This document shows positions 46,701 to 63,589 of a DNA stretch of 64,000 nucleotides, piece after piece. The DNA is from a virus: the IMG/VR virus record IMGVR_UViG_3300036845_000721, positions 32,001 through 96,000 of that record; one strand, given 5' to 3'. Below the pieces are notes generated by a model, which had not been told where the DNA came from, made no database searches, and saw only the letters and a program-made list of their open reading frames with translations. Every line of letters starts with the position of its first letter. Position 1 is the first letter of the stretch. Made by a program: the position numbers and the translations under genes.

Positions 46701-49515
46701 TCGGGTTACGGGCAGGCCCGGTCCATGCCGGGCAGGTGCGACTGCCAGTGCCCGTGGATGTGGCGGACGTAGGTCTCGCACACCGTCATCTGGCGCGGCA
46801 GGCCGTGGATGAACGACTGCACCAGCGCCACGGTGCCGGCGCGGTCCAGCCCGATGCGGAACTGGTAGTAGCTGACCAGCGCGGCGCGGAGGTTCCGCTG
46901 GTGCGCGAACATGCACAGCAGGTGATTGATGAGATGGGCCATGGTCATTTCTCCGATCGGTCGGAAATCAGGTCCCGTATCCACGGGAACTGCCGGATGA
47001 ACTCGCGCCATTCGGGGGACTTATCCCGCCAGGCCGGCCAGCATGACGCGCAGATGTTGCCGCTGGCTGCCTCGTAGACGTGGCCGCATAGCCGGCACGC
47101 ACGCTTGGATTTCACTGGGTCACCCCCGTCTGGGATAGGTCCTGCGCGGCCCGCAGCGCCACGGAGAGGCGCGAACACGGGCCAGCGGGTGTTACCAGGT
47201 AGGCCGGCTCTCGGCGCGCCGTACGGCCAGCTCTGCGCGGATCGCGCGGACGGCCGGCGGTGACGCGAGCCGCAAGTCCAGCCCGCGGAGTACGTCGGTG
47301 CGGACATCGTCCAGCCGGATCGCCGTCCACACGGGCCGCGATTCCTGGCGCATGGTTGCGTACATGGTTGCTGTCTCCTGATCGTGTTAGTTCCGTCAGT
47401 GTCGTGTTTCTGGGCGATTGCCGCAGCGCGCCGCCGGAGTGCAGAACTGCACTCGGCCGCGCGCCACGGGTGACGTCCAGCTTCAGCTGACGGCCGCCAG
47501 CTCGCCAAGGGCACCGTCGCGCGAGGCACGCTGGCGGCGCGGGCGCTTGACGGCCGCCTTGATCTGCGCGTCCATCTCGGCCCTGATCTTGGCGACCTTG
47601 GCCTCGGCCGCGGTCACCTCGCCCTGGAGGCGCAGCAGGTTGGCCTCGGCCTTGGCCAGCTGCGTCGGCAGGTCATCCTCGCCGGCGCCGTCCGCGTCGT
47701 CCGCGCCGTCGCCGTCGCCCTCGCCGTCGCCCTCGCCGGCCGGCTTGCGGGACTGCACGATCGCACGCGCGGCGGCCGTGGTCATCGCTTCCTGCACCAG
47801 CTCGAACCGGTCATCCTCACGGCCGAGGATCTGGTGCACCGTCCAGGATGCGACGCCGCGCTGGTCTGCCGGGTACTGCTCGGCGACCTTGCGGAAGTCG
47901 TACAGGGACTTGCCGGGGACGTCCAGGTCAGCGGCGAACCGCTCGATCGTGCTGGCACCGTAGGTCGTGGCGACCTTGAGCGCCAGGTCACCGAGGACCC
48001 AGTTGAACTTGTACTGCGACGCGATGGCGGCGCGGCCCTGCCGGACGGCGGTGTTGTACCGGGCCGGGCTGTCTTCCACGGCCACGACGGTCTTGACGGG
48101 GGTCTTACCGGACTTGCTTGCCATGATGTCTGTCTCCTGATCAGTTACCTGGCGGGTTGCCGAGTGCAGAACTGCACTCGGCGGTGCCGTCGTCTCGCGG
48201 CACTCACGGGCCGGCAATGTTCCGGTCGATCGGAGCATCGCCGGCCCGTCAGCGGGCGGGAACGTTACCGGCCGGCCGTCCAGTCGGTGTCGGTGTAGGC
48301 GCAGAAGTCGGACGGCACTGCGGCCCGGTCGGCTAGCCGTCGCAGGATGCGCGCGGCGTGGCGCGGCTCAGTCGCTGCGATGCGCGCGGCATAGGCACGC
48401 TGCGCGGTCTCGGTGTCCGGGCGCGGAGGGATGTGCAGCCGCGCGCAGTCCAGCGCGCCGGCGCCGCTGTGCGGCATGCCGTGGTCGGGGCTGTCGCAGC
48501 ACTGGCGGACGTAGGCGAACGGCCGCTCGGCCGGCTCAGCTTTGGGCTGGCGGTGCGTGTCACTCATGATCATGTCTCCCGATCTTGCGGCGGAGTGCAG
48601 AACTGCACTCCGGTCAGCTAGCGGTTAGGGTGTCTGCGGCGACGTCGAACAGCGTCCGGGTACCGGGCACGATAAGCGGACCGGTCGGTACGTCACCCGC
48701 GATCACCCGCGCGCCCGTGCGCTCATACAGGCAGCGTCCGCACATCTGCGTGCGCGTGCAGTTGCAGGTCATGACCGGCCACTCCGCTCGATGATCGCGG
48801 CCCATCCGGCCAGCGATCGGTCGCTGTCGCGGTCGGCCGCGATGCCGGCGGCGGGCAGGCTGGTCTCGCCTAGCACAGCACCGCATCGCGGGCAGGCGGA
48901 CAGTGCCAGGTCGGGGGACGTGAATCCGCATCCGTCGCAGATCACGATGGGTTTGCGGGTAGTGCGTGCCATGATCGTGCCTCTCAGTTGGAGTGCAGGA
49001 TTGCACTCGGGTCAGTTGTCGCCTAGCCATACCGGCTGGCGGCGGACGATTGCGACCGCGCCAAGCCCGTGCAGGACCGAACGATCGGCCATGGCCGGCC
49101 GCCGCAATCCCTCGGATTCGCCGGCCAGCCGTTGCCGTACCTCCATGCCGGCCACAGCGCGAACGCCGGTCGCTACCCGCGCGATGCGCGGTGCGGACAC
49201 GTGCGTGAGCGATTCGCTGGCATACTCGGCCGATTCGGCGCGCCGGCGGACACCTCCGCCACCCATCCGCGCGGTGCCCATTGTGTTGCCGCGCGCCGTG
49301 CGGGTAACCGCGCGGCCGTCACGGTCAGTTTGGGTGACCGTGCGGCGCGGTGCGCCGGCTACCCGCCGGCCGGCCGTCGGATCGGTCCGCGCGTTGCTGC
49401 CCGTGCGGCCGGCCGTGCCGTACGTGCCCGACCGCAGTGCCGGCGGAGGTGACTTAGGCGACAGTGCAGCGCGCGACACGGTGCCTAGCTTGGCTTGCTT
49501 GTGTCGTGATCCCAT
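43733..49515 (-). other. run of short hypothetical genes: 43733-44449, 44491-44859, 44856-45413, 45467-46057, 46945-47115, 47192-47365, 48265-48573, 48769-48972, 49012-49515 and others
   Basis: Most are preceded by a header and/or palindromic site. Confidence 0.6.
47483..48124 (-). CDS. probable DNA-binding protein (W.LGD-type helical/HTH domain plus coiled coil)
   Basis: FNWVLGDLAL...IERFAADLDV...SLYDFRKVA...SWTVHQIL; header and operator upstream. Confidence 0.55.
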   Translation of the reverse strand: MASKSGKTPVKTVVAVEDSPARYNTAVRQGRAAIASQYKFNWVLGDLALKVATTYGASTIERFAADLDVPGKSLYDFRKVAEQYPADQRGVASWTVHQILGREDDRFELVQEAMTTAAARAIVQSRKPAGEGDGEGDGDGADDADGAGEDDLPTQLAKAEANLLRLQGEVTAAEAKVAKIRAEMDAQIKAAVKRPRRQRASRDGALGELAAVS

Positions 49516-50898: not shown

Positions 50899-51044
50899 CC
50901 CACGGTCGGAGGTGGCCCACGGTCGGAGGTGGCCCACGGTCGGAGGTGGCCCACGGTCGGAGGTGGCCCACGGTCGGAGGTGGCCCACGGTCGGAGGTGG
51001 CCCACGGTCGGAGGTGGCCCACGGTCGGAGGTGGCCCACGGTCG
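50899..51044. repeat. 17-bp tandem repeat CCCACGGTCGGAGGTGG, 8 full copies plus 10 bp
   Basis: Units start at 50899, 50916 ... 51018, partial at 51035; non-coding region. Confidence 0.95.
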
Positions 51045-51069: not shown

Positions 51070-51148
51070 AACTATCTTCCACGGCATGCACTTGGCATAG
51101 GGTGGCTTACCGTGGGATGGAACTATCTTCCACGGCATGCACTTGGCA
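51070..51148. repeat. 28-bp direct repeat AACTATCTTCCACGGCATGCACTTGGCA, 2 copies
   Basis: 51070-51097 and 51121-51148. Confidence 0.9.
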
Positions 51149-51669
51149 GGTAACTCGTTAGCAGCAGAGCGCAGAAATCGAACACAGATCCGCCACATTT
51201 TTGTTCGATTTTTTGGTGCGCACCTCCCAGGATGCCCGCTTCACGCGATTCTCCCCCCGAACACGATTACCCAAAGGGCGAGGTCATCGAACGATTTGTC
51301 GAAATATGGCTTTGACCTGCAAGGGAATAAAGAAATGCCTGGTGGCGCTATACCTGGTCACGCGTCGCCAATGCCGTGAACTGTCCGGCAGGCAGGCAAC
51401 GGTCGGAGACCATTTTCGAGTAGATGTTCGATAGGGTTGGCTGGAACGACCAGAAACGGCCGGAGACCGCCGCCGGCGCCGCACCCGGAGATAGCTTCCG
51501 CGGAATGGATCCCGCGTGACCGCGAGGGGTGTAAGTATGTTCCGCGGAATGCACGTGGCAGCGGTTCGTGCCCGGATCGTTCACACTCGCAACGACTCTG
51601 TGACCGGGACCCGTGACTGTGACGTCGCTTTTCAGTGTGACTTTGTGATCGTCGCAGGCAGCGGCCCGG

Positions 51670-51748: not shown

Positions 51749-52920
51749 CCCCTGACCTGGGGTTTCCCCGCCGGAACAGAATAGGTGTCATAATGGTTAT
51801 GTGGCAACGAGGCAACCAGCAGGCAAGCGCGAACAGCTGGGCAGCAGGCTGTGTGCTGGGGACGGCTGCCTAGCTCGGGTACCTTACGCAGGCCGGGGAA
51901 GGCCTCGGTACTGCGATGCGTGCCGTCGGGAAAAACTCCGGGAGCAATGGAACCGATCAGGGCGCGATAGATATGCTCGCGGGTACAGGAAACCGAGGCA
52001 GAGTCGCTTGTGCAGCGGCGGCTGCGGGCGCCGGGTTAACTACCGGCCGGAGCGGGGTTCGCGAGAGCAGCCGGTATGTCGGGATTGCCGTAAAAGGGCT
52101 CGTCAGCACGTCTGCGAGCAGTGCGGAGCGCCCTTCGAGGCGTTCGGTAAGCCGCGCCCCGGGAAGTCTCACAAGTTCTGTTCGGATTGCCGTGCTGTTG
52201 CTCGCCGACGGCGAGGAAATAGCCGGTCTTCATCCAAGGTGTCATCGCGGGCCAGGAAGCTGCGGCATACTCTGACCTGGGATTTCGTAACGGATGAGCA
52301 GATCTTCGAGCGTGATGAGGGGGTCTGCCGGGTGCCGGAATGCGACCTGGGGCCGATCCGGTTTAACTTGAAATGCCCGCACCCGCTTAGTCCGACGATC
52401 GATCACATCATCCCGCTGAGCAGAGGCGGAACGGACACCGCACCGAATAAGCGCTCTGCGCACTGGCTCTGCAATGTCCGGCGCGGGAACCGGATGCACC
52501 CAGATGACTTGCAAGTACTCTCTCCCGAGCTGGCCCCGCTAGGGCTGTTGCCTGAGCGGAGGCAGCCAAAGCCGCCGGAGTGGTGCGCGAAATGCGGAAA
52601 ATCCCAGGTCAAGCGTTCAGGAGCTGTTTGCACGAGCTGCGCGTCAGCCACCCGGGCCGAGCGGCAGGACAGGATTCTGGCATGTCGCGGGGCTGGGATG
52701 AAGTGGGCAGATATAGCCGTCCGGTTCGGGCTGAGCAGCGCCGGCGCAGCGTACAACGTCGCATACGGCCTGGGAGTTCACCGCTGTAGGTATTGCGGGT
52801 ACCTGGTACCACCCCGTCATGCCTGCGTCACACCCTCCGTCACACCTGCGTCACACCCCTGGCCTGCGGTTTCCCTGCCGGGAACAGAATCGGTGTCATA
52901 ATGGTTATGTGGCAACGAGG
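51743..52920. mobile_element. HNH gene bracketed by a ~70-bp imperfect direct repeat (29-bp identical core)
   Basis: Repeat copies 51743-51812 and 52851-52920; core GGTGTCATAATGGTTATGTGGCAACGAGG at 51784-51812 and 52892-52920. Confidence 0.65.
51801..52901 (+). CDS. HNH endonuclease with multiple zinc ribbons
   Basis: TIDHIIPLSRGGTDTAPNKRSAHWLCNVRRGN; several CxxC pairs; codon usage less GC3-biased than flanks. Confidence 0.9.
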   Translation: MATRQPAGKREQLGSRLCAGDGCLARVPYAGRGRPRYCDACRREKLREQWNRSGRDRYARGYRKPRQSRLCSGGCGRRVNYRPERGSREQPVCRDCRKRARQHVCEQCGAPFEAFGKPRPGKSHKFCSDCRAVARRRRGNSRSSSKVSSRARKLRHTLTWDFVTDEQIFERDEGVCRVPECDLGPIRFNLKCPHPLSPTIDHIIPLSRGGTDTAPNKRSAHWLCNVRRGNRMHPDDLQVLSPELAPLGLLPERRQPKPPEWCAKCGKSQVKRSGAVCTSCASATRAERQDRILACRGAGMKWADIAVRFGLSSAGAAYNVAYGLGVHRCRYCGYLVPPRHACVTPSVTPASHPWPAVSLPGTESVS

Positions 52921-53602: not shown

Positions 53603-53917
53603 GTGACCACCCTCGCAACGGAGGTGCGCCGCGGCATGCACCGGCACAGTGACGAGGCCGTGGCTGCCGTCGTGCTCCATGCGCTCCTGGGACTGCGCAC
53701 TGACCCGGCTGATGACCCGGCCTGGACGGCGGTGCCGCCGGAGGTCCGGGCCGTGCTGACCGAGCGGGTCAGGCAGATCCGGGCCGGCGTGCTGCCGCGT
53801 GAGCAGTACGAGAACATGGCCGGCCCCGGTGACCCCCCGTACAGCGACCTGCCGGTGACCCGGCGCGATGAGGATCAGCTGGAATGGCTGGTGACCCAGG
53901 CGCTGACCGGGGACTGA
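53603..53917 (+). CDS. hypothetical protein
   Basis: GGAGG RBS; coding-like composition. Confidence 0.55.
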   Translation: MTTLATEVRRGMHRHSDEAVAAVVLHALLGLRTDPADDPAWTAVPPEVRAVLTERVRQIRAGVLPREQYENMAGPGDPPYSDLPVTRRDEDQLEWLVTQALTGD

Positions 53918-54105
53918 CCCGGGCCATCGCCGCGCTGCGGGCGGCCGGGTTCCCGGTCACTGACCCGGGTGATGACCCGCCGGATCCCTGCTGCCGGAAC
54001 TGCGGGTGCAGCCTGCCGGTTCACGAGCGCCACGGCGCCAGCCGGTGCGCGAACCGGCGCCGCTGCCGCTGCCCGGGCTGGCGGGCGCCGCGGGAATGAC
54101 CCGGA
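53701..54105 (+). repeat. cluster of TGACCCGG 8-mers, candidate clt (TraB recognition) locus
   Basis: Exact at 53701, 53713, 53856, 53915, 53961, 54097; near matches at 53830, 53892, 53904, 53973. Confidence 0.45.
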
Positions 54106-54255
54106 ACCGGGTCGCGGAATACCGCAGCCGGCGGTGATGTTGGGCACGTCAAGCATTCAGCGTGATACTCTGAGCGTCACGCTACGAAGGCCGGTCCCGC
54201 GGTACCGGAACCGGCCTCCTGAACCGGATCGACCGAGCTAGGCGGTGACCGGCAC

Positions 54256-55269
54256 GTGAAGCAGCATACGATCAACCCCGGCTCCGGCACGAGGGCGCCC
54301 GGCGATATTGCCGTGGCCGTGCTGCTGGCCCTCGGCGCCGTCTTCGAGCGCCGTCCCCGCACCCACCGCGCGTGGATCGCGGCCGTTCCGATCGTCGCCG
54401 TCAACTACGTCGCGTTCCGCGCCCAGCTGCGGTACTGGGAAACCTACCTCAGCCATAGCGACGCCCTGCTGGTGTCCGCCGCGCTCGAATCGATCGCGAT
54501 CTACCTGGCCTGGCAGGCGCACGTCGCCCAGCTCGCCGACGACTCCGCGCTCCGGCTGCGGCTCGCCGCCTACGGCATGGCCGCGGGCATCGGCGCGCTG
54601 AACTACAGCCACTACATGCACCCGGGCTGGCGGCCCACCCCCGCCGCCGTCGTGTTCGGCGGCATGTCCGCTATCTCGCCTTGGCTGTGGTCCATCCACT
54701 CCCGCCGCGAGTCCCGCGACGCGCTGAAGGCGACCGGCCAGATCGATCCGCACGCCGTCCGGCTCGGCGCCACCCGCTGGATCTGGCACCTGTACCGGTG
54801 CTTCCGGGTCATGTGGGCCGCCAGCTGGATCGGCGAGACCCGGCCGGCCGAGGCCATCAAGCTGATCCAGGAGGACCGGATCCTTACCGCCAGCGGGGCT
54901 GGTGATGTTCTTACCGCGGACATCGAGAGCCGTCAGCCGGATCACGGCCCGGTTCGCGAGCCGGTTCCCGGCACCGCCCGCCCGGCGGCGCTTCCCCGGC
55001 CGGCCCGGGCCACGATGCCGGGTCACGGGGGCAAGTCGAACCTGGCGGCGGTCCGGGTCGCTGAGCTGAAGGCGGTCACCGAGCAGGAACTGGCCGTGGC
55101 GCTGGCTGCCGTGCCCGTGCTGCCCAGCGTCCGGTCGCTGGCTGATCACGAGAAGCTGGCCGGGCACGGATCGGAGTCCAGCCGGCGCCGGGCGGCGAGG
55201 CGGGTGCTGGCAGCGGTCAGCGCGCAGCGCAACGGAGGATCCCCTCATGACAGCGTCGACAGGGCCTAG
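54256..55269 (+). CDS. multi-pass membrane protein, DUF2637/Spd-like (actinomycete plasmid spreading type)
   Basis: Four hydrophobic helices, LESIAIYL..., C-terminal putative HTH (PSVRSLA); upstream of TraB. Confidence 0.55.
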   Translation: MKQHTINPGSGTRAPGDIAVAVLLALGAVFERRPRTHRAWIAAVPIVAVNYVAFRAQLRYWETYLSHSDALLVSAALESIAIYLAWQAHVAQLADDSALRLRLAAYGMAAGIGALNYSHYMHPGWRPTPAAVVFGGMSAISPWLWSIHSRRESRDALKATGQIDPHAVRLGATRWIWHLYRCFRVMWAASWIGETRPAEAIKLIQEDRILTASGAGDVLTADIESRQPDHGPVREPVPGTARPAALPRPARATMPGHGGKSNLAAVRVAELKAVTEQELAVALAAVPVLPSVRSLADHEKLAGHGSESSRRRAARRVLAAVSAQRNGGSPHDSVDRA

Positions 55270-57208
55270 CGGTCCCGCCGCCCCGGGCGGCCATGTCCGC
55301 TGGCGGCGCCGGCTGCTGATCGGGCTGGCCGTCGCGACCGGCATCGTCATGTTCGCCCGCACGGCCGGGCTCCGGACGGCGGAGATCACCGGAGGCGGTC
55401 TCGCGGTCGCCGGCCTGGTCGGCCTGTACCTGTGGCGCGGCCCGAAGCTGCACAAGCACCTGCGGGGGCTGCGCGGCGGGGGTCACAGCAGGACCGGCAG
55501 CCTCAACTGGCCCGGCCAGCGCGGCAAGGGACTGCCCAGCATCCGGTCGCCGGGGCACAGGCGCTTGGGCGGTTCCCGGGCGGGTATGCGCGCTGGTAGC
55601 CGGCACCGTCCGGCTATGGCTCCGTTCCGCCGCGCGGGCGGTGCCGGCCCCAGAGCAGGGTCACGCCATCGCAGGGGTCTCGGCAGGGTCTTCGGCTCTG
55701 CCGGTGCGCGGCGCCGTCCCGGCGGCCCGTCGCTGTCCGGCCGCCGGGGCGGCACAGGCCGTGGCCTGACGGGCCGGCGCAGCACTGGCCGTAGTCTGAC
55801 GGGCCGGCGCAGCACTGGTCGTGGCCTGACGGGCCGGCGCAGGCTTGCCGGGAGTTCCGGGACGTCCCGCCGGGGTTCCGGGGCAGCTCGCCGGCGTTCC
55901 GCCAGCCGCTTCTCACCGTCTCGCCGGCGATCCGGGGCTTTCCGCGGGTCTCGCCGGGTTTCCGGTGGTTCCCGCGGAGGATCGCGGGGTTCCGGACGGA
56001 CAAGGCCGGGATCGCGCGGTGCCGGATCACGCCGTCGCAGCCTGTTTCACCCCTTCAGCGGGCGCCGTCGCCCCGTCAGCGGCTCGCGCGGTCGCGGCGG
56101 CGCCCGGCCTGCGGGCCGCCGTATCCGCATTCTCGGGCTGTTCAGCCGCCGTCCGGCTGGCAGCAGCGGGCCGCGGGCGCGCCGGTCTCCCGCCCGGCCG
56201 CCCGGCCGCGTGCGCCGGGCCTGGCAGCGGCTGGGCGCCGCCCGTGCTGCGCGCGGTCCCGGCCCGGCCCGCTACGCGTGGTGGCGGCTGCGCGGAAGCC
56301 CCGGGACGCCCGGCAGCCGCGGCTCCCGGCGCCGCGCGCTGCGCAACCGCCGCAAGGCCTGGCGCCGCCGGCTCAAGGCGAACCCGGCGCTTGCCCGGCG
56401 CCGGCCCTGGTACGCGCCATGGCGCATGCAGCCGGGCGGGAAGCCCGCGCTGCGGCACCGGCTCAGCCGGCGGGTCCGCACCTGGCGCCGGCGGCACCGG
56501 CTGTACGCGCCGCGCAACCGGCAGGGCCGCCGGCTCACCTGGCGGGACCGGATCGCGCGCAGGTGGCACATCTGGCGCGGTCACCCGGGCTCCGGCGCCA
56601 TCCTGCTGGGCGGCCGGCCCCGGCTGAGCCGCCGGGTCGCTGCCCGGGCACGCCGGATCGCCAGCCCGCGGCGCTGGCGCTGGCTGCGCAGGCACCGTCA
56701 GGCTCCGCCCCGGCAGATGCCGGCCTGGACCGGCGCGGCCGGGCAGCGGATCAACCACCACCGCCAGTACCGGTGGCTGCGCGGCGGCACTCCGGTCCGG
56801 CCGCAGCCGCAGCCGCAGCCGCGCCGGCAGCGCGGCGCCCAGCCCGCAGGCAACGGCAGCAGCCGCAGTAACGGGTCCGGTCCCGTCCCGGGAGCCGGCC
56901 AGACACGAGGAGGAGCAATGGACACAGGCGCGATGGCAGAGTCGATCCGGGAGCAGGGCAACCACGAGTTTGTCGACCCGCAGGACGTGCACGACACCCT
57001 GACCGGGATGCACGAGATCGTGGCGGCAATGCACGACGCCCTGCAGGTGATGGCCCAGCACCTGGCCGAGTCCGGCGTGCACCCGGCGTACGCCGAGGCG
57101 ACGGCCGAGGCGGCGAATCAGATGACCGGGATCGCCGACGGCCTGCAGTCCGTCACCCAGGGCGGCGTGATGCAGGGTCCGGGCGGCGGCGGCGGAGGCA
57201 GCGGCTGA
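55247..57208 (+). CDS. membrane-anchored, extremely Arg/Gly-rich protein; in-frame internal start at 56918 gives a 96-aa acidic helical protein
   Basis: Two N-terminal hydrophobic helices; ~500 aa of R/G/S/P; GAGGAGGAGCA-ATG at 56918 in the same frame; 30-bp x3 repeat at 55757-55846. Confidence 0.55.
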   Translation: MTASTGPSGPAAPGGHVRWRRRLLIGLAVATGIVMFARTAGLRTAEITGGGLAVAGLVGLYLWRGPKLHKHLRGLRGGGHSRTGSLNWPGQRGKGLPSIRSPGHRRLGGSRAGMRAGSRHRPAMAPFRRAGGAGPRAGSRHRRGLGRVFGSAGARRRPGGPSLSGRRGGTGRGLTGRRSTGRSLTGRRSTGRGLTGRRRLAGSSGTSRRGSGAARRRSASRFSPSRRRSGAFRGSRRVSGGSRGGSRGSGRTRPGSRGAGSRRRSLFHPFSGRRRPVSGSRGRGGARPAGRRIRILGLFSRRPAGSSGPRARRSPARPPGRVRRAWQRLGAARAARGPGPARYAWWRLRGSPGTPGSRGSRRRALRNRRKAWRRRLKANPALARRRPWYAPWRMQPGGKPALRHRLSRRVRTWRRRHRLYAPRNRQGRRLTWRDRIARRWHIWRGHPGSGAILLGGRPRLSRRVAARARRIASPRRWRWLRRHRQAPPRQMPAWTGAAGQRINHHRQYRWLRGGTPVRPQPQPQPRRQRGAQPAGNGSSRSNGSGPVPGAGQTRGGAMDTGAMAESIREQGNHEFVDPQDVHDTLTGMHEIVAAMHDALQVMAQHLAESGVHPAYAEATAEAANQMTGIADGLQSVTQGGVMQGPGGGGGGSG

Positions 57209-57212
57209 CCGC

Positions 57213-57551
57213 ATGACGGATGCCCGGGACCCGCTGTTCGTCCCGGCCGCCAGGTGCGGTCGCGGGACGATCGACGGCGCCGTCTGGCGGCCCGGTGACC
57301 CGGTCAAGCACCTCGGGCCGCCGGGGCACCTGGGCATCCGCCTGTGGTCGAAGCTGTTCAGCACCCGGTGCGGTCTCGGCCCGCAGCCGGAGCCGGGGTA
57401 CGGCCGGTGGCAGCCGCAGGAGCACGACGGGTTCCGTGAGGATGACGACTACTGGTGCCCGCCCTGCCTGGACCAGGCGGGCATCAGCTACGAGCTATGG
57501 CCTGACGATGAGCCGGAGGGAGGCGGCAGTGAGCAGCGACCAGGACCGTGA
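57213..57551 (+). CDS. hypothetical protein
   Basis: Between the helical protein gene and traB; overlap-coupled. Confidence 0.5.
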   Translation: MTDARDPLFVPAARCGRGTIDGAVWRPGDPVKHLGPPGHLGIRLWSKLFSTRCGLGPQPEPGYGRWQPQEHDGFREDDDYWCPPCLDQAGISYELWPDDEPEGGGSEQRPGP

Positions 57552-59619
57552 CGGCCGGGAGACCCCGCCGCGTGACGCCGGCGGCCGGTGGACCCCGTCC
57601 GGGCGCGATGACGGCTGGCGGCAGGAGGACAGGCCGGAACAGCCGGAGCGCCCGCATGCCCCGTCGCTGGCCCGGCACTGCGGGGAGAGCTCGCTGGTAG
57701 CCGTGCTGTCGGTGCTGCTGGCGGCCTACCTGCTCCCGGCCTCGGTGCCGATGTGGATGCCGTTGTCGGCGCTCATCGCGGTCACCACGGTCACCTGGTA
57801 CGTGACCTTCCAGATGACCCGGTCGCGGCACCTGTCCGGCTACATGCTCGCCTGGGGCCTGCTGATCACCGGCTGGTTCACCCTCGCCCGGACCGACGGC
57901 GTGCACGAGCAGGTCATCGCCCTGCTGTTCATCCCGGCGATCGTGCTGGCGTTCCTGGGCGTGCCCGCCATTAGCCGCTACCGGGAAGTGCTCGCCGCCG
58001 GGGACCAGGCCGCGCGGGACAAGGCCGGCACCGCGATCCTGCGGCACTGGGAGCAGGTCCTGGAGGCGCACGGGGCGCACGGCGCTAAGGTGCTGGACGT
58101 GGTGCGGCACGACGGCAGCCTGGAGATCCGCGGCCGTCTCCCCCGCGCCGTCCCGGGCCGGACCACGATGACCTTCGCCCAGCTGCAGGCGCTCGGCCCG
58201 GAGATCGCGGTGAGCGAGCGCCGCAACGAGGACGGGATCTACTTCTCCAAGCCCGAGGACGGGTCCGCCGCCGACTTCGTGCTGCACGTCCGGGACCGGC
58301 GGTCCGGGCAGCGGGCACCGGTCCACCTGCCGGTCCGGCACGTTCCGCTGTCCGTCAACCGGTCGTTCGGGGTGGGCGTGCTGGACAGCGGCCGGGAGTA
58401 CGGCACGCTGCTGCGCGAGAAGCACATCCAGATCATCGGCGTTACCCGGGTCGGCAAGAGCAACCTGATCAACGTGTTCATTGACCGGATCGGCGGGATG
58501 ATCGACGCGCTGATCTGGATGATCGATATGAAGGGCGGGAGGACCAGCCGCCCGTGGATCGTGCCGTGGCTGCAGGGGCTCACGCCGCGCCCGGTTATCG
58601 ACTGGATGGCCACCACCCGCGAGGAAACCAAGATCATGCTGGACACCGCGCTGCTGGCGGTGCAGACCCGGGCCGGGTACCCGGGGTTCGAGAAGATCAT
58701 CCCGTCCCGTGACACTCCGGCGATCATCCTGATCTGCGACGACGTCGGCCGCTGTTTCGGGCACGGCGTCCGGGAAGGCGGCATCAGCAACTACGGCATG
58801 TCCCAGCTCGGCGCGCAGTTCACCGAGCTGGCCGGGTCTGAGGCCGGGGTGCTGATCGGGGCCGGCCAGCGGGCCAACGTGGAGCTGTGGGGCGGCACCG
58901 CGATGAAGTCCCAGTCCGAGCTGCGGTTCGGGCTGCGGGCCACGTCGTCGGCGGACGGCGCGCAGGTTTTCCCGGATAACGCGCAGGCGGCCCGGATGGT
59001 CGCCGGGCTGCGGGACAAGGGCGACTGCCTGGTCAAGGACGGCCCGGACATCAGCCCGGTCGTGCACCTGTACCGGGTCGGCGACGCGGACCGGATCACC
59101 AAGCGGGCGCTGTGGGCCGGCGACTACCGCCCGGAACCCGAGCGGCGGCTGATCGAGGCGATGGGCAGCGCGTATTCCGAGCGCTGGGACCGGTCCGCGA
59201 GCCTGCTGGACGAGTGGCGGCGGACGGCCGGCATCCCGGAGCCGACGGAGCCTGGCGGGCCGGATGACGACGGCGACGGCGATGATTCCGATCCGGATGA
59301 CTGGGACGCGAAGCGTTTCGAGCGCGAGTTCGGCCGGATTGTCGCGCAGGTGCCGGACGCGGAGGCGCCGGCCGACCCGCGCCGGAAGGTGATGTGGCGG
59401 ATCCTGCGCGACGCCGGCTGGGCGGGCCTGAGCGTCAAGTCCATCGTCATCCGGCTGGACACCGCGGGGGCGATGACCCGGCGGGACGTCGTGCACCACT
59501 GGCTCAAGGAAGACGAGCAGAAGGGCTGGGTGCGCCGCGGGAAGCGCGGTACCCAGCCGGTGTGGATCTGGTCCGGGCACGGCGATGCGGACTACATACT
59601 GGACGCCGAGGCGATGTAG
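57529..59619 (+). CDS. traB: FtsK/SpoIIIE-family conjugative DNA translocase (actinomycete TraB type)
   Basis: N-terminal TM helices; Walker A GVTRVGKS; WMIDMKGG; Walker B ILICDD; GQRA; C-terminal winged helix; GTG after GGAGGGAGG. Confidence 0.8.
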   Translation: MSSDQDRDGRETPPRDAGGRWTPSGRDDGWRQEDRPEQPERPHAPSLARHCGESSLVAVLSVLLAAYLLPASVPMWMPLSALIAVTTVTWYVTFQMTRSRHLSGYMLAWGLLITGWFTLARTDGVHEQVIALLFIPAIVLAFLGVPAISRYREVLAAGDQAARDKAGTAILRHWEQVLEAHGAHGAKVLDVVRHDGSLEIRGRLPRAVPGRTTMTFAQLQALGPEIAVSERRNEDGIYFSKPEDGSAADFVLHVRDRRSGQRAPVHLPVRHVPLSVNRSFGVGVLDSGREYGTLLREKHIQIIGVTRVGKSNLINVFIDRIGGMIDALIWMIDMKGGRTSRPWIVPWLQGLTPRPVIDWMATTREETKIMLDTALLAVQTRAGYPGFEKIIPSRDTPAIILICDDVGRCFGHGVREGGISNYGMSQLGAQFTELAGSEAGVLIGAGQRANVELWGGTAMKSQSELRFGLRATSSADGAQVFPDNAQAARMVAGLRDKGDCLVKDGPDISPVVHLYRVGDADRITKRALWAGDYRPEPERRLIEAMGSAYSERWDRSASLLDEWRRTAGIPEPTEPGGPDDDGDGDDSDPDDWDAKRFEREFGRIVAQVPDAEAPADPRRKVMWRILRDAGWAGLSVKSIVIRLDTAGAMTRRDVVHHWLKEDEQKGWVRRGKRGTQPVWIWSGHGDADYILDAEAM

Positions 59620-59661
59620 CATGTATGCAGGTTGCTGTACGCAAAGAGCAGGAGACAGGCT

Positions 59662-59955
59662 ATGTTCCGGGTAACTCAGATCGACCTGGACGAGGGCGAG
59701 GAAATCTCCGTCCTGTACGCGGTCGCCGACTCCGCGACGGCAGAGGTCATCCGGCCGTTCACGGACCCGGCCGGCTTCGACTGCCGGACGGGCACCCTGT
59801 CGGACGGCACGGTCAGGATCCGGCTGACCATCGGCGCGGCTCACGACATCCTGGAGGTGACCGGCAAGATCCCGGGCGATAACCCGCACTGGCCGCTCAC
59901 CACGATCGTGAACAACAGCCTGTTCGGCATAATCAGCTCACTGGAAGGCTGGTGA
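59662..59955 (+). CDS. hypothetical protein
   Basis: CAGGAGACA header at 59649. Confidence 0.65.
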   Translation: MFRVTQIDLDEGEEISVLYAVADSATAEVIRPFTDPAGFDCRTGTLSDGTVRIRLTIGAAHDILEVTGKIPGDNPHWPLTTIVNNSLFGIISSLEGW

Positions 59956-59958
59956 CTC

Positions 59959-60928
59959 GTGGAACTTCCCGGCAGGGTGCAGATCGAGGTGCTGGCCGCG
60001 GGCGCCGTCGCCATCGGCGGCCTCGCCCTGTTCCGCGGTATCGCCCGGTCGGCCGCAGCGCACGCCGGCGAGATCATGACCGTCGCGCGGGACGCTGCCA
60101 CCGCCGTCATCGCCGCGGCCGGGCTGGCGGTCCTGCTGCTGACGGCCCGCACGGTTGCCCGGCAGGAAGGCCGGCACTGCGAGCCGCCGGCCCCGCAGCC
60201 CGCGCAGTACCCGCGGCCCCCGCGCCAGGCGCACCGGCCGGGCGAGGTCGTGCACACCTACACGCTGTACCCGCCCGCAGCTGAGCCCGCGCCCGTCATG
60301 GAGTCCCTGGACGACGAGGCCCTGGCCGAGACCTGGAGGCAGTGATGGTGCCGGACGATCCGGACCGGCAGGCGCTGGGCTACGCTCACGCCGAGCTGGC
60401 TGCCCGGATAACGGGCCGGGGCTGGGGTTCAGGCGGGGAGCAGCCGCCCCGGATGACAGTCGTCGTGCCGGAGTGCTCCCCGGCGCTGGCCGACCCGGCT
60501 TGCCGGGAGCAGCTGGGAGACCTGGTGCTGCTCGGCCGGGCCGAGAACATCGTCGTTGTGCTGGGAGGGGTGCCATGACGCCGTACGCCGTGTCCCTCAT
60601 CGCCGTCCTCGCGGTCGCCTGGGCGTACCACGGGATCACCGAGCATCACTGGCACCGGGCGCTGCTGCGGATCGCGGAGCCGCGCACCGTCGTGCCCCCG
60701 GTCCGGCACGAGACCCGCTGGCACGCCATGAGCCACGCTGCCCGGCTCGCGGTCGACCTGGGCCTGGCCGTGGCGGCGGTGGCCCTCGGGACCGCCTGGA
60801 AGATGCAGCCGGCGATCACCATGGTCACGCTGATCGCCGCCGCCGTCATCGCTGTTACCGTGATCGCCGTCCGGAAGCTGTCGAAATCCCTCGGCGGCCG
60901 GCGCCCCGGGAACTGGGAAGGAAACTGA
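59959..60928 (+). other. small, mostly membrane-associated genes: 59959-60345, 60342-60578, 60575-60928
   Basis: Paired hydrophobic helices in the first and third; overlap coupling. Confidence 0.6.
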
Positions 60929-60929
60929 C

Positions 60930-61046
60930 ATGGATCTCGGAAGGATCATCTTCTACGTCGTGGTGGCCTGGATCATTCTCTGGGCGCTCAACCACGGGGC
61001 GGAAGTAGCCAGCTTTTTCCACTCGTTCGTCAACTCCACCAAGTAG
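60930..61046 (+). CDS. 38-aa single-TM peptide MDLGRIIFYVVVAWIILWALNHGAEVASFFHSFVNSTK
   Basis: Translated by hand; GGAAGG RBS; fills the gap between two genes. Confidence 0.65.
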   Translation: MDLGRIIFYVVVAWIILWALNHGAEVASFFHSFVNSTK

Positions 61047-61055
61047 GAGACAGCC

Positions 61056-61364
61056 ATGCGGATCGGCACCCTGGCCGTGCTGGCCGCCGTCATCGCACTG
61101 GTGTCCCTGCTCGTGCATAACCCGCTGGGCGTTATCGGCGGCATCGGGGTGCTTGGCTACCTGCTCTCGCTGCTTATCGCCCCCAAGGTCAAGTGCCGGT
61201 CCTGCAGCGGCTCCGGGGATCACGGTGACGCGGTGGGATCGTCCGGTATCCGCAGGTGCTGGACCTGCCATGGCCGCAAGGAATACGCCCGCCTCGGTAC
61301 CCGGCTGCTCCGCCCGCAGGTGTACCAGGCGATCCAGTCCGGCCGCCATGGCAGGAACTGGTGA
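61056..61364 (+). CDS. membrane protein with DnaJ-type zinc finger
   Basis: Two TM helices, then CRSCSGSG...CWTCHG; header at 61046. Confidence 0.7.
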   Translation: MRIGTLAVLAAVIALVSLLVHNPLGVIGGIGVLGYLLSLLIAPKVKCRSCSGSGDHGDAVGSSGIRRCWTCHGRKEYARLGTRLLRPQVYQAIQSGRHGRNW

Positions 61365-62562
61365 TGACTGTGCACGACATCACGCTGACGCTCAGCCGCG
61401 AGCTGACCGAAGACGAGATCGAGGCACTGTTCGAGGCCTGCGACACCGATCCGGGAATCGAGACCGGGCCGCTCGGGACAATCGTGGAACTCCGCCTGGA
61501 AGCCCCGGCGTTCCAGGAGGCCGCCGATCGCGCGATCCGGCAGGTAACCCGGGTAATCCCGCAAGGCTGGATGATCCGGCCGGCCGGATAGACAAGATCA
61601 GGAGACAGCCATGCCAGAAAACGTCACTCACCGCGGGTTCGGCATCTACGCGGAACTCACCGACACGCACGGCAGCGAGGTGCGCGTCCAGGAATCCAGC
61701 GCCGCGGACTCCGCCTGCGTCTGGATCTTCGCTGATCACGTCCCGGCAGACAGGTATCTCAGAGCCGATCAGGCAGCCGTGCTCTCCCAGGCCGGCTTTT
61801 CGAGCCTGCACGAGCTGGCCGCGTTCCTGACCCCCAGCCCGCACCTGAACCTGGAGCAGGCCATCACGGTCCGCGACGCCCTGGACGCCTTCATCCGGGA
61901 GAACTCATGACCGGGGCTGGCGGCACGCGGCTACTGCACCTGATCCGCACCGAGCCCGGCCCGGGGGTCGCGGAGCCGACGGGCACCGTCGCCGAGGCCG
62001 TCGTGTTCAGTGACGGCACGGCGGTGCTGCACTGGCTGACCGACCCGTGCGGGACCGAGTTCTACGCATCGGAAGACGCGATGCGCGGCGTCCGTGAGCG
62101 CAGCGGCCGATCGGCGTTTGCCGAGTCCGCGACCAGGGAGCATTCATGACGGACATCAGCGACGCCCAGGTCCGCGAGATCCAGTGGGCCAGCTCGGACA
62201 GGGGCAAGGCGCAGCTGCGGGCCGCCTGGGCAGAGGCCGTCCGGCTCGGCCTGTACGACAAGGGCACGGTCGTGACCATGGCCGACGTCAGCGCGATGTT
62301 GTGGGCTGCCCGCGAGGCCGTTGCGCCGCCCGCCGGGATGGCCACCGTGCTGTCCGGCTGCCAGTACTGCCACCGGATCATCGCCCGCGCGGGCGGCAGC
62401 GGCGACGGTGACGAGTGGCGGACCCTGCCGGACCGGGCGGCCGGGGGCCAGATCCTGTTCCCCGCCGCGGCGGTCGCCTGCGCTGCCAGCCCGGATGACC
62501 GGCATCACCCGCCGGACCCGGGCCGGAACTCCGGCGCGCTGCGGCATCTCGGGGAGATGTGA
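61364..62562 (+). other. short hypothetical genes: 61364-61591, 61611-61910, 61907-62149, 62146-62562
   Basis: Coupled ORFs; header GATCAGGAGACA at 61597. Confidence 0.6.
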
Positions 62563-63152
62563 TGCACGCCCGGCTGCAGGCGGCCAGCCGCACCGCTACC
62601 TTCGGGCCGTGCCTGGGCCTGCCGCTGTACGGCTGGACTGAGCTCGGCAAGCCTGCGCAGCTGGCCGGCCTCGGCGTGATGACCGCGGTTGCCGTGCTTG
62701 TCTGGCCGCTGCTCGTCGTCTCGGTGCTGTTCTTCGTGCCCGAGCTGCTGGCGCCGGCCGGGCTGGTGCCGCGTAGCTGGCGGATCCGCTACCGGCAGCG
62801 GCACGGCCGTGTCGGCGCCGCCAGCTCCTACATTCCCAAGCGGCTGCGCCGGGTGGTCTACTTCGCCGACGGGCACCGCTGCGCCGGCTGCGGAGCCCGC
62901 CGTGTCCGGCTGCAGATCGACCACATCCGGCCGTGGGCGGCCGGCGGCCGGACCACCCTGTGGAACTGCATGTCGCTGTGCGAGCCGTGCAACGGGATCA
63001 AGTGCAACTACAGCCGGGACCGTGACGGGTACGAGCACTACGCCGGGAACCGGTACTGGATCCGGGACGCCCGGCAGATCCTGCGCCGGGAGCGCCGCCA
63101 CCGGCTGAACCCGGTGCGCTGGACCCGTGCGGCCTGGGCGCTGGGATCATGA
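62559..63152 (+). CDS. HNH endonuclease with N-terminal hydrophobic segment
   Basis: CAGCG...LQIDHIRPWAAGGRTTLWNCMSLCEPCNGIK; LGVMTAVAVLVWPLLVVSVLFFV. Confidence 0.85.
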   Translation: MMHARLQAASRTATFGPCLGLPLYGWTELGKPAQLAGLGVMTAVAVLVWPLLVVSVLFFVPELLAPAGLVPRSWRIRYRQRHGRVGAASSYIPKRLRRVVYFADGHRCAGCGARRVRLQIDHIRPWAAGGRTTLWNCMSLCEPCNGIKCNYSRDRDGYEHYAGNRYWIRDARQILRRERRHRLNPVRWTRAAWALGS

Positions 63153-63589
63153 CGGCGGCCGTTCCGGTCCCGCCGCTCAGCGGGAAGCTGCTCGGCGTGC
63201 AGGAGACGGCTGACCGGCTGGGCGTGCACGCGAACACCGTGCGGAACTGGGTCAGGGCCGGGCGGCTCCGCGCGGCCAGGCCATTGCCGGGGCTGAAGTT
63301 CGATCCGGCTGAGGTGGAGCGGGTCCTGCGGAGCATGGCCGGCCGGGACCTGGCCAGTATCCAGCGCGGTAACGCCACGGTCGGGATCCTGGTGGTGGTC
63401 CGGCTGCCGGACATGATGACGCCGGAAGACGCTGTTAACGAGGTCCGCCGCGGGATCGAGTTCGGAGAGCCGCGGGTGGGACTGCACTTCGTTGTCCCGG
63501 ACGCCCGGGAACAGGAGGAATTATGGCTGAGCGGGTGCAGGTCTCGGTGCGGATGCACGGCCCGACGCACCGGGCCTGGAACGAGATAA
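63149..63589 (+). CDS. MerR/excisionase-like HTH protein
   Basis: LLGVQETADRLGVHANTVRNWVRAGRLRA...FDPAEVER. Confidence 0.8.
   Translation: MTAAVPVPPLSGKLLGVQETADRLGVHANTVRNWVRAGRLRAARPLPGLKFDPAEVERVLRSMAGRDLASIQRGNATVGILVVVRLPDMMTPEDAVNEVRRGIEFGEPRVGLHFVVPDAREQEELWLSGCRSRCGCTARRTGPGTR

Follow-up and report, generated by a model that had tools for sequence, protein, structure and literature searches.

Gene organization of the locus

The stretch of viral DNA analyzed here (the window, 64,000 nucleotides) covers bases 32001-96000 of a linear 131,444-bp contig, the IMG/VR virus record IMGVR_UViG_3300036845_000721; coordinates are those of the window unless the contig is named. At 54256-61364 the window encodes a cassette built around a membrane-anchored TraB/FtsK-like translocase of double-stranded DNA (dsDNA), with all of its genes on the plus strand:

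54256..55269, plus strand: DUF2637-like polytopic membrane protein, 337 residues (Pfam DUF2637, phrog_10376)
55247..57208, plus strand: Tra-partner protein, 653 residues, with an N-terminal transmembrane helix and a helical C-terminal domain
57213..57551, plus strand: small Cys-rich protein, 112 residues, supported by the frame signal of third-position guanine-cytosine content (GC3) and overlapping the translocase start
57508..59619, plus strand: membrane-anchored TraB/FtsK-like dsDNA translocase, 703 residues (phrog_31069, AlphaFold2 model, Foldseek, phylogenetic trees)
59661..59955, plus strand: small soluble protein, 97 residues, behind a CAGGAGACA header; no family match
59959..60345, plus strand: small membrane protein, 128 residues, with two transmembrane helices by hydropathy; no family match
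60342..60578, plus strand: small protein, 78 residues, translationally coupled to the preceding gene; GC3-supported open reading frame (ORF), no family match
61056..61364, plus strand: small membrane protein, 102 residues, with two transmembrane helices and a zinc-ribbon-like CxxC...CxxC C-terminus; TAGGAGACA before its ATG

A preliminary description of this region had proposed an FtsK/TraB translocase flanked by small membrane genes, and the ATPase motifs together with the transmembrane proteins on either side bear this out. Its gene list is amended here: the gene after the translocase starts at the ATG at 59661 rather than at 59632, and the conserved small gene at 57213-57551 had been missed. 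The components of the cassette are established by sequence, fold and phylogeny. The region may well be a native TraB-type dsDNA translocation cassette of a large tailed phage, which would move phage DNA through the mycelium of its host.

Structure of the translocase

The ORF of the translocase spans 57220-59619, of which the first 96 codons look like an out-of-frame Arg/Ser/Gly-rich sequence. Translation most likely begins at M97 (57508), since the alignment has every homologue starting there and the protein-database entry is 703 residues long. The RecA-like core possesses a Walker A motif (GVTRVGKS) and a Walker B motif (ILICDD), and residues G316, K317 and D411 are invariant across 17 homologues. 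In the AlphaFold2 (AF2) model, which was computed from 17 homologues and has a predicted local distance difference test score (pLDDT) of 77.5, four N-terminal helices are followed by a long helix, a β domain, a RecA/FtsK-type motor and a C-terminal winged helix. The N-terminal helices (residues 54-155), two of them strongly hydrophobic, constitute the membrane anchor according to hydropathy and the model, whereas the winged helix is predicted as an H-H-H-β-β element at residues 624-688 with a pLDDT of 82-93.

Structural similarity search using Foldseek revealed that the best PDB matches of the model are the pCW3 coupling protein TcpA, FtsK motor domains, EccC/EssC and HerA. The FtsK motor domains (2IUT and 6T8B) were matched at a TM-score normalised to target length (TMt) of 0.6-0.68 with an E of 1e-12. 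At the sequence level, the translocase matches the PHROG family phrog_31069, annotated as 'FtsK/SpoIIIE-like', at an E of 1e-22; a sequence search of the PDB gave no match, and neither Pfam, including its FtsK_gamma and FtsK_4TM families, nor NCBIfam matched the protein. Altogether, the predicted model displays the full TraB/FtsK architecture.

Phylogeny and distribution of the translocase

Maximum-likelihood trees were calculated by quick IQ-TREE runs, with support given as Shimodaira-Hasegawa approximate likelihood ratio test (SH-aLRT) values; all values quoted here belong to branches marked as reaching at least 95. The translocase falls into a clade of uncultured sequences (support 99), which nests within a larger clade (support 96) that also holds integrated-element Tra-like proteins and the protein of the NBC_01259 phage-plasmid. 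The latter is sister, at a support of 100, to Streptomyces integrated-element proteins resembling those of actinomycete integrative and conjugative elements (AICEs). The sister clade (support 99) contains pZL12.71c from the plasmid-phage pZL12 (Streptomyces), TraB-like proteins of small plasmids, gp99 of Streptomyces phage Spocter and gp63 of Thermobifida phage P1312. E. coli FtsK and pIJ101 Tra lie outside on long branches. These sequence relationships support a place for the translocase in the TraB/Tra radiation of actinomycete mobile elements, not with chromosomal FtsK, in a sampling that left out pSVH1 TraB and any actinomycete FtsK. The preliminary description had taken a grouping with non-conjugative phage or chromosomal FtsK as speaking against a phage-plasmid that spreads by conjugation; the outcome is mixed, because the tree sets FtsK outside yet interleaves phage and conjugative-element proteins.

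A single-sequence scan of viral contigs and a first alignment-based scan of genome contigs found no relatives, and later alignment-based scans succeeded. Relatives of the translocase are present on 19 IMG/VR contigs of 8.6-165 kb, and a profile search of 1.84 billion cluster representatives returned 3808 relatives at E<=1e-3, 431 at E<=1e-30. The second scan of species-representative genomes yielded 23 loci in Streptomyces, Kribbella, Polymorphospora, Streptosporangium and actinomycete metagenome-assembled genomes. Pfam analysis of 107 ORFs around nine genomic loci identified four tyrosine integrases, two GntR regulators, two NUDIX proteins and one DUF3631 (RepAM) protein, which, beside housekeeping genes, is the classical AICE set. 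At the S. niger locus, for example, a helix-turn-helix regulator, a 629-residue partner, a 732-residue translocase and an integrase are followed by host genes.

In the plasmid collection PLSDB, the best matches (30% over ~430 residues) reside on ~90-kb circular Streptomyces plasmids. NZ_CP108469.1 (L005) is circular, encodes ParB and carries a terminase gene a few kb downstream of the translocase, and therefore is probably an unrecognised pZL12-like phage-plasmid. Several Streptomyces plasmids of ~86-99 kb, typed by PLSDB as 'non-mobilizable', carry a TraB-like translocase; NZ_CP108469 is the one that was inspected. Matches of lower strength were obtained to TraB-like small-plasmid genes and to 'FtsK-like' genes carried by the isolated phages Hiyaa, Spocter, PIS 136, P1312 and ZL12. 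The translocase family is broad, being common to AICEs, plasmids, phage-plasmids and large phages, and the partner gene travels along with it. The record of PIS 136 (L030) was matched in two places, the 853-residue PIS_041 and a second one, apparently representing two FtsK-like genes. The second-best viral fold match of the translocase model is a 344-residue protein (TMt 0.78), whose UniProt accession pattern suggests PIS_039.

Genes accompanying the translocase

The DUF2637-like gene adjoins the translocase gene in 10 of the 19 related viral loci. Its product matches Pfam DUF2637 at an E of 0.0025, which fails the cut-off, and phrog_10376 at 1e-6. Its homologues include Spocter gp95 (26%, 1e-11) and, on large linear plasmids of Streptomyces, DUF2637 proteins (31-33%, 1e-14 to 1e-16).

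The partner protein encoded at 55247 has a long, low-complexity middle rich in Arg, Gly and Ser, with a 30-nt sequence repeated three times. The middle of the product is the less certain part, because the GC3 peak, which marks the coding frame, shifts to another frame between 55540 and 56020. The protein is conserved in the viral loci L006 (35%, 4e-31) and L009. A gene encoding ~560-770 residues directly upstream of tra is homologous among AICEs, small plasmids, pZL12.72c, NBC_01259 and phage P1312, and the consensus of this family is built like the 55247 product, with a transmembrane helix, then a middle rich in Arg and Gly, and a C-terminal domain that is conserved. The C-terminal domain of the latter aligns with the family at an hhalign probability of 84% and an E of 7e-6. 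Profile comparison is the only tie of the partner to its counterparts: BLAST of the partner and the DUF2637-like protein against those of pZL12 and NBC_01259 gave nothing. The ~765-residue proteins downstream of DUF2637 genes on large linear plasmids could not be connected with the family (hhalign probability 0.1). Given the C-terminal match of the partner and the DUF2637 homologues in Spocter and the linear plasmids, the cassette as a whole, beyond the ATPase alone, is common to phage and conjugative elements.

The L006 counterpart of the small Cys-rich protein shares 60% identity, and there too it is encoded by a separate gene, directly ahead of the translocase. In the relative P0012, the corresponding sequence is joined in frame to the translocase as an N-terminal extension, which could mean that the two genes have fused, or that a frameshift takes place within the 57508-57551 overlap. 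Among the downstream genes, 61056 is kept behind the translocase in L006, L007 and L008; tblastn detected no conservation of the 59959 product in the relatives at an E of 1e-4. No relaxase or type IV secretion system accompanies the cassette, as had been noted earlier: the AAA_10 (VirB4-like), TrwC and Relaxase families have no match in the 131-kb contig.

The cassette is a native part of a large tailed phage

The contig has a CheckV completeness of 62%, a guanine-cytosine (GC) content of 71% and no terminal repeats. PHROG searches identified genes of a large terminase, a portal, a head protease and a major head protein at contig 105-114 kb, and, at the left contig end, weak-to-moderate hits in a 'tail fiber assembly' family. 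The window itself encodes an SNF2 helicase, a 1463-residue primase/helicase/PolA fusion, a GIY-YIG nuclease and an Rv2525c-type lysin. The terminase, portal, protease and head genes, taken together with the replisome genes and the lysin, therefore define the element as a large tailed phage whose host is a high-GC actinomycete that probably grows as a mycelium. The phage-like blocks (replisome, lysin and early region) put forward in the preliminary description are real; of the further genes that it had named for the rest of the contig, terminase and capsid are present, a tail fiber-like signal is weak to moderate, and integrase and par genes were not found. In style, the genome is that of a large lytic-type phage, with its own replisome, a 37-kb early operon and a tRNA array:

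Contig 127.8-131.4 kb (L004 15783-19444), minus strand: array of 15 tRNA genes

The final bases of the contig resemble a piece of one more tRNA, which places the end of the assembly within this array.

Gene order was compared by tblastn of all contig proteins against the 19 viral loci. In each of L006-L009, the last early-block gene (47483-48238) is followed in the same order by the DUF2637-like gene, then the translocase, the membrane protein of 61056 and the HNH endonuclease of 62559; in L007 and L008 this order continues to the terminase at 70-76% identity. At 50-52 kb of the window, the GC content falls to 60% and the gene orientation flips in the same place; L007, L008 and L009 possess homologues in order on either side of this low-GC switch region (50-53 kb). 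Since independent contigs keep the order on both sides of 50-53 kb, a chimera or a recent AICE insertion, which had been named as a finding that would undo the earlier phage-plasmid proposal, is contradicted, and the cassette is an integral, native part of one phage genome. Two HNH endonuclease genes were also identified:

51801-52901: HNH endonuclease gene
62559-63152: HNH endonuclease gene

Six of the related viral loci keep the latter, in the interval from the cassette to the packaging genes, which is the usual place for a terminase-associated HNH endonuclease. Megablast of 44-64 kb against phage and plasmid collections gave no match.

Shared headers and a candidate recognition site

The sequence CAGGAGACA occurs in 27 copies in the window, compared to 0.36 expected, and always just upstream of start codons. 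Exact copies at 59649 and 61599 and the one-mismatch variant TAGGAGACA at ~61046 each sit a few bases ahead of an ATG, in agreement with the headers described earlier. CAGGAGACA is an extended ribosome-site header common to the early block and the cassette.

A possible target of the translocase was found just upstream of the cassette:

53701..54114: cluster of TGACCCGG 8-mers, six on the plus strand and one GACCCGG on the minus strand; candidate clt-like array

The six copies lie within ~400 bp (53701-54105), with a nominal p of ~4e-7, and among the 8-mer cluster loci of the contig this one ranks 8th in strength. Since the copies are spread over different frames, they do not represent a peptide repeat. 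As a candidate clt-like recognition array, it is a weak lead. The 8-mer clusters detected in relatives, such as CTGGCGCG in L013, L017 and L019, coincide with the distal end of the DUF2637-like gene or adjoin it, and were rejected as clt evidence; where inspected (L013), the period is 9, so that these clusters look like coding repeats. A promoter and terminator scan gave nothing informative.

Comparison with known systems

The plasmid-phage pZL12 (phiZL12 as a phage) was reportedly described as such in Streptomyces by Zhong et al. in 2010 (J Bacteriol 192:3747). Similar to the window, it encodes a membrane protein (73c), a 766-residue protein (72c) and a ~700-residue translocase (71c) upstream of the terminase; we take 71c-73c to be the pZL12 genes traA-traC. 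The sister-clade protein pZL12.71c is homologous to the window translocase family over 431 columns (hhalign probability 99.5, E 1e-22), and pZL12.72c shares the C-terminal domain of the window partner, whereas pZL12.73c has no similarity to the DUF2637-like protein. The two elements differ in that pZL12 is a 90-kb circle with ParA/ParB (PMC4487206), compared to a phage of at least 131 kb in which par genes were not found in the contig. The transfer locus of pZL12 has been experimentally defined (PMC3583192, PMC4487206).

The TraB proteins of Streptomyces plasmids and AICEs (pSVH1 TraB, pSAM2 TraSA; Vogelmann 2011; Thoma 2015, PMC4447253) are likewise membrane-anchored FtsK-like motors with a C-terminal winged helix, which is predicted in the window protein, and these systems also have adjacent small membrane proteins and no relaxase or type IV secretion system. 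TraB hexamers form membrane pores, and the C-terminal winged helix reads direct 8-bp clt repeats as dsDNA is pumped through; together with Spd proteins, TraB spreads plasmids across septal cross-walls. Integrated-element Tra-like proteins share the clade of the window protein, the S. niger one with a partner gene and an integrase. Unlike the TraB elements, the window belongs to a tailed-phage genome in which a GntR-type TraR/Kor regulator and an integrase were not found, and in which no Rep was seen, no search aimed at plasmid-type replication initiators having been made. An AICE is recognized by integrase, Rep and Tra within a 10-25-kb island; the contig has no tyrosine integrase or resolvase, and its cassette lies in a conserved phage order. 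The window also differs from pIJ101, whose Tra lies outside the clade and whose SpdA, SpdB and KilB resemble none of the small downstream proteins.

Translocases of ~680-850 residues that resemble FtsK also occur in phages of mycelial hosts, namely the Streptomyces phages Hiyaa, Spocter, Galactica and Keanu, Saccharomonospora phage PIS 136 and Thermobifida phage P1312. These isolated-actinophage proteins share 23-30% identity with the window translocase, those of Spocter and P1312 belonging to the sister clade. Similar to the window, Spocter has a homologous DUF2637-like membrane gene near its translocase, and P1312 has the partner gene. FtsK-like genes are commonly annotated in Streptomyces phages (PMC11536984, PMC13587820, PMC4569894), and Spd homologues on actinophages have already been proposed to help in the spread of phage DNA (PMC4447253, Thoma 2015). 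Chromosomal FtsK/SpoIIIE shares the motor fold and the domain order with the window protein; however, E. coli FtsK forms the outgroup, and the chromosomal Pfam families FtsK_SpoIIIE, FtsK_gamma and FtsK_4TM are unmatched by the window.

A phage with a working transfer locus (pZL12) is thus already known, and the spreading idea is in print. New here are a large-phage lineage with a complete cassette in which no par or integrase genes were found, the nesting of its translocase among integrated-element Tra-like proteins, and the inclusion of the partner and Cys-rich genes in the cassette.

Proposed role and alternative explanations

By analogy with the TraB systems, the most likely role of the cassette would be the movement of unpackaged phage DNA between hyphal compartments. 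Beyond the membrane-anchored FtsK/TraB-type motor, the winged helix and the conserved membrane partners, we infer the following steps. The ATPase would assemble into a hexameric pore in the hyphal membrane or the septal cross-wall, and the winged helix would recognize short repeats on the phage genome, for which no candidate other than the TGACCCGG cluster at 53.7-54.1 kb emerged. Unpackaged phage dsDNA would then be pumped into neighboring hyphal compartments or hyphae, resulting in a virion-free spread through the mycelium besides the normal release of virions. More tentatively, and with some doubt, we suggest that large, apparently virulent soil actinophages took over the AICE-type TraB machine, consisting of the DUF2637 protein, the partner and the translocase, and use it to push replicating, unpackaged genomes across septa and into neighboring hyphae, a conjugation-like mode by which a virus would pass from cell to cell in multicellular bacteria without virions.

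Several observations weigh against a transfer role. PF01580 (FtsK_SpoIIIE) has no match even at E<=1 across the whole contig; pZL12.71c and Spocter gp99 likewise fail this family, and PF01935 or PF01580 is present in some homologues. The TGACCCGG cluster, with its presumed likeness to the recognition sequence of pSVH1 TraB, is of modest significance, and no equivalent was seen in the relatives. The lack of similarity to pIJ101 SpdA, SpdB and KilB leaves the term 'Spd-like', used earlier for the small membrane genes, as a statement of position; Spd proteins are poorly conserved (PMC4447253). No GntR-type TraR/Kor regulator is encoded among the neighboring ORFs scanned (52.9-63.6 kb). To our knowledge, virion-free transfer has never been reported for the plaque-forming phages with related genes (Spocter/Hiyaa, PIS 136 and P1312).

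If such a transfer does occur, a second route of spread that needs no virion would be open to phages of filamentous bacteria. It would be comparable to the way in which eukaryotic viruses spread from cell to cell, and would blur the line between conjugative element and virus. It would also bear on the reading of plaque size, host range and defence in Streptomyces.

The preliminary description had favored a phage-plasmid, that is, an extrachromosomal replicon similar to pZL12 that moves between strains both in virions and through hyphal conjugation driven by TraB. We consider this unlikely. It would agree with the closest plasmid-collection matches and the pZL12 match of the phage collection, which are ~90-kb circular Streptomyces phage-plasmids with the same cassette upstream of the terminase, and with the defined transfer locus of pZL12 (PMC3583192, PMC4487206). 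Moreover, 38% of the genome is missing from the contig, and two repeats of the window could be iterons or a centromere:

50899-51044: perfect 17-bp tandem repeat CCCACGGTCGGAGGTGG, 8.6 copies, with a period that is not a multiple of 3
51070-51560: 28-bp sequence in two perfect copies and one degenerate copy

Both repeats sit in the apparently non-coding, 60%-GC region from which the early block runs leftward and the other block rightward, and could also be an origin or operators. Against a phage-plasmid, however, searches for the Phage_integrase, Resolvase, ParB_N, AAA_31 and CbiA families found no match in the 131-kb contig, and thus no ParA, ParB, tyrosine integrase or resolvase, in a search that did not cover plasmid-type replication initiators. 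The five long relatives that carry the translocase, four of them at a CheckV completeness of 100% (141-165 kb), likewise have no tyrosine integrase and no ParB above the cut-off; direct terminal repeats occur in three of these five. This ParB search has its positive control in the two true phage-plasmids, pZL12 and NZ_CP108469, both of which it matched, and it gave no match in Spocter, PIS 136 and P1312. The genome is also of the large virulent type, as seen from its replisome, tRNA array and 37-kb early operon. A plasmid prophage state is not indicated.

A role in segregation within the infected mycelium is similarly improbable in our view. In this case, the translocase would, for example, pump genomes into prespore compartments, letting the phage persist in spores, or clear or resolve phage DNA caught by septa as they close, in the manner of FtsK, SpoIIIE or SffA. 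The order of transmembrane anchor, motor and winged helix is that of FtsK/SpoIIIE, and phage papers have read such genes as helpers of segregation or replication, or as tied to host development (PMC4569894, PMC11536984, PMC13587820). By contrast, the translocase groups with mobile-element Tra proteins rather than with E. coli FtsK, and is linked to a tra-partner gene typical of conjugative elements.

Still less probable is a role in conflict, either excluding the DNA of superinfecting phages, plasmids or AICEs, or killing the host by Kil-like toxicity. traB and traR form a Kil-Kor pair in which unregulated traB is toxic (PMC4447253), and no Kor/TraR regulator was seen beside the phage gene. 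A multi-gene cassette with a winged helix conserved over many phage lineages, however, would be needless for mere toxicity. Finally, an artefact in the form of a chimeric contig or a recent AICE insertion into a prophage, for which the GC dip to 60% and the orientation switch at 50-52 kb might speak, is highly improbable, as L007, L008 and L009 keep the gene order across this region to the terminase, an integrase is absent and the phage's own CAGGAGACA header lies inside the cassette.

Additional features of the region

ARAGORN called a 95-nt tRNA-Ser(gct) on the minus strand at 55432-55526, inside the partner ORF at 55247. The call is probably false, given its dissimilarity to the array of tRNA genes at the contig end. 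It is located near the 5' end of the ORF, about where the GC3 signal fades and just upstream of the low-complexity part. Among 16 ORFs checked at 52.9-63.8 kb, an in-frame TTA codon occurs in a single case, codon 125 of the ORF at 63149-63589. This TTA abuts the ATG of the next ORF (TTATG, 63521-63525) and resembles a stop-start overlap.

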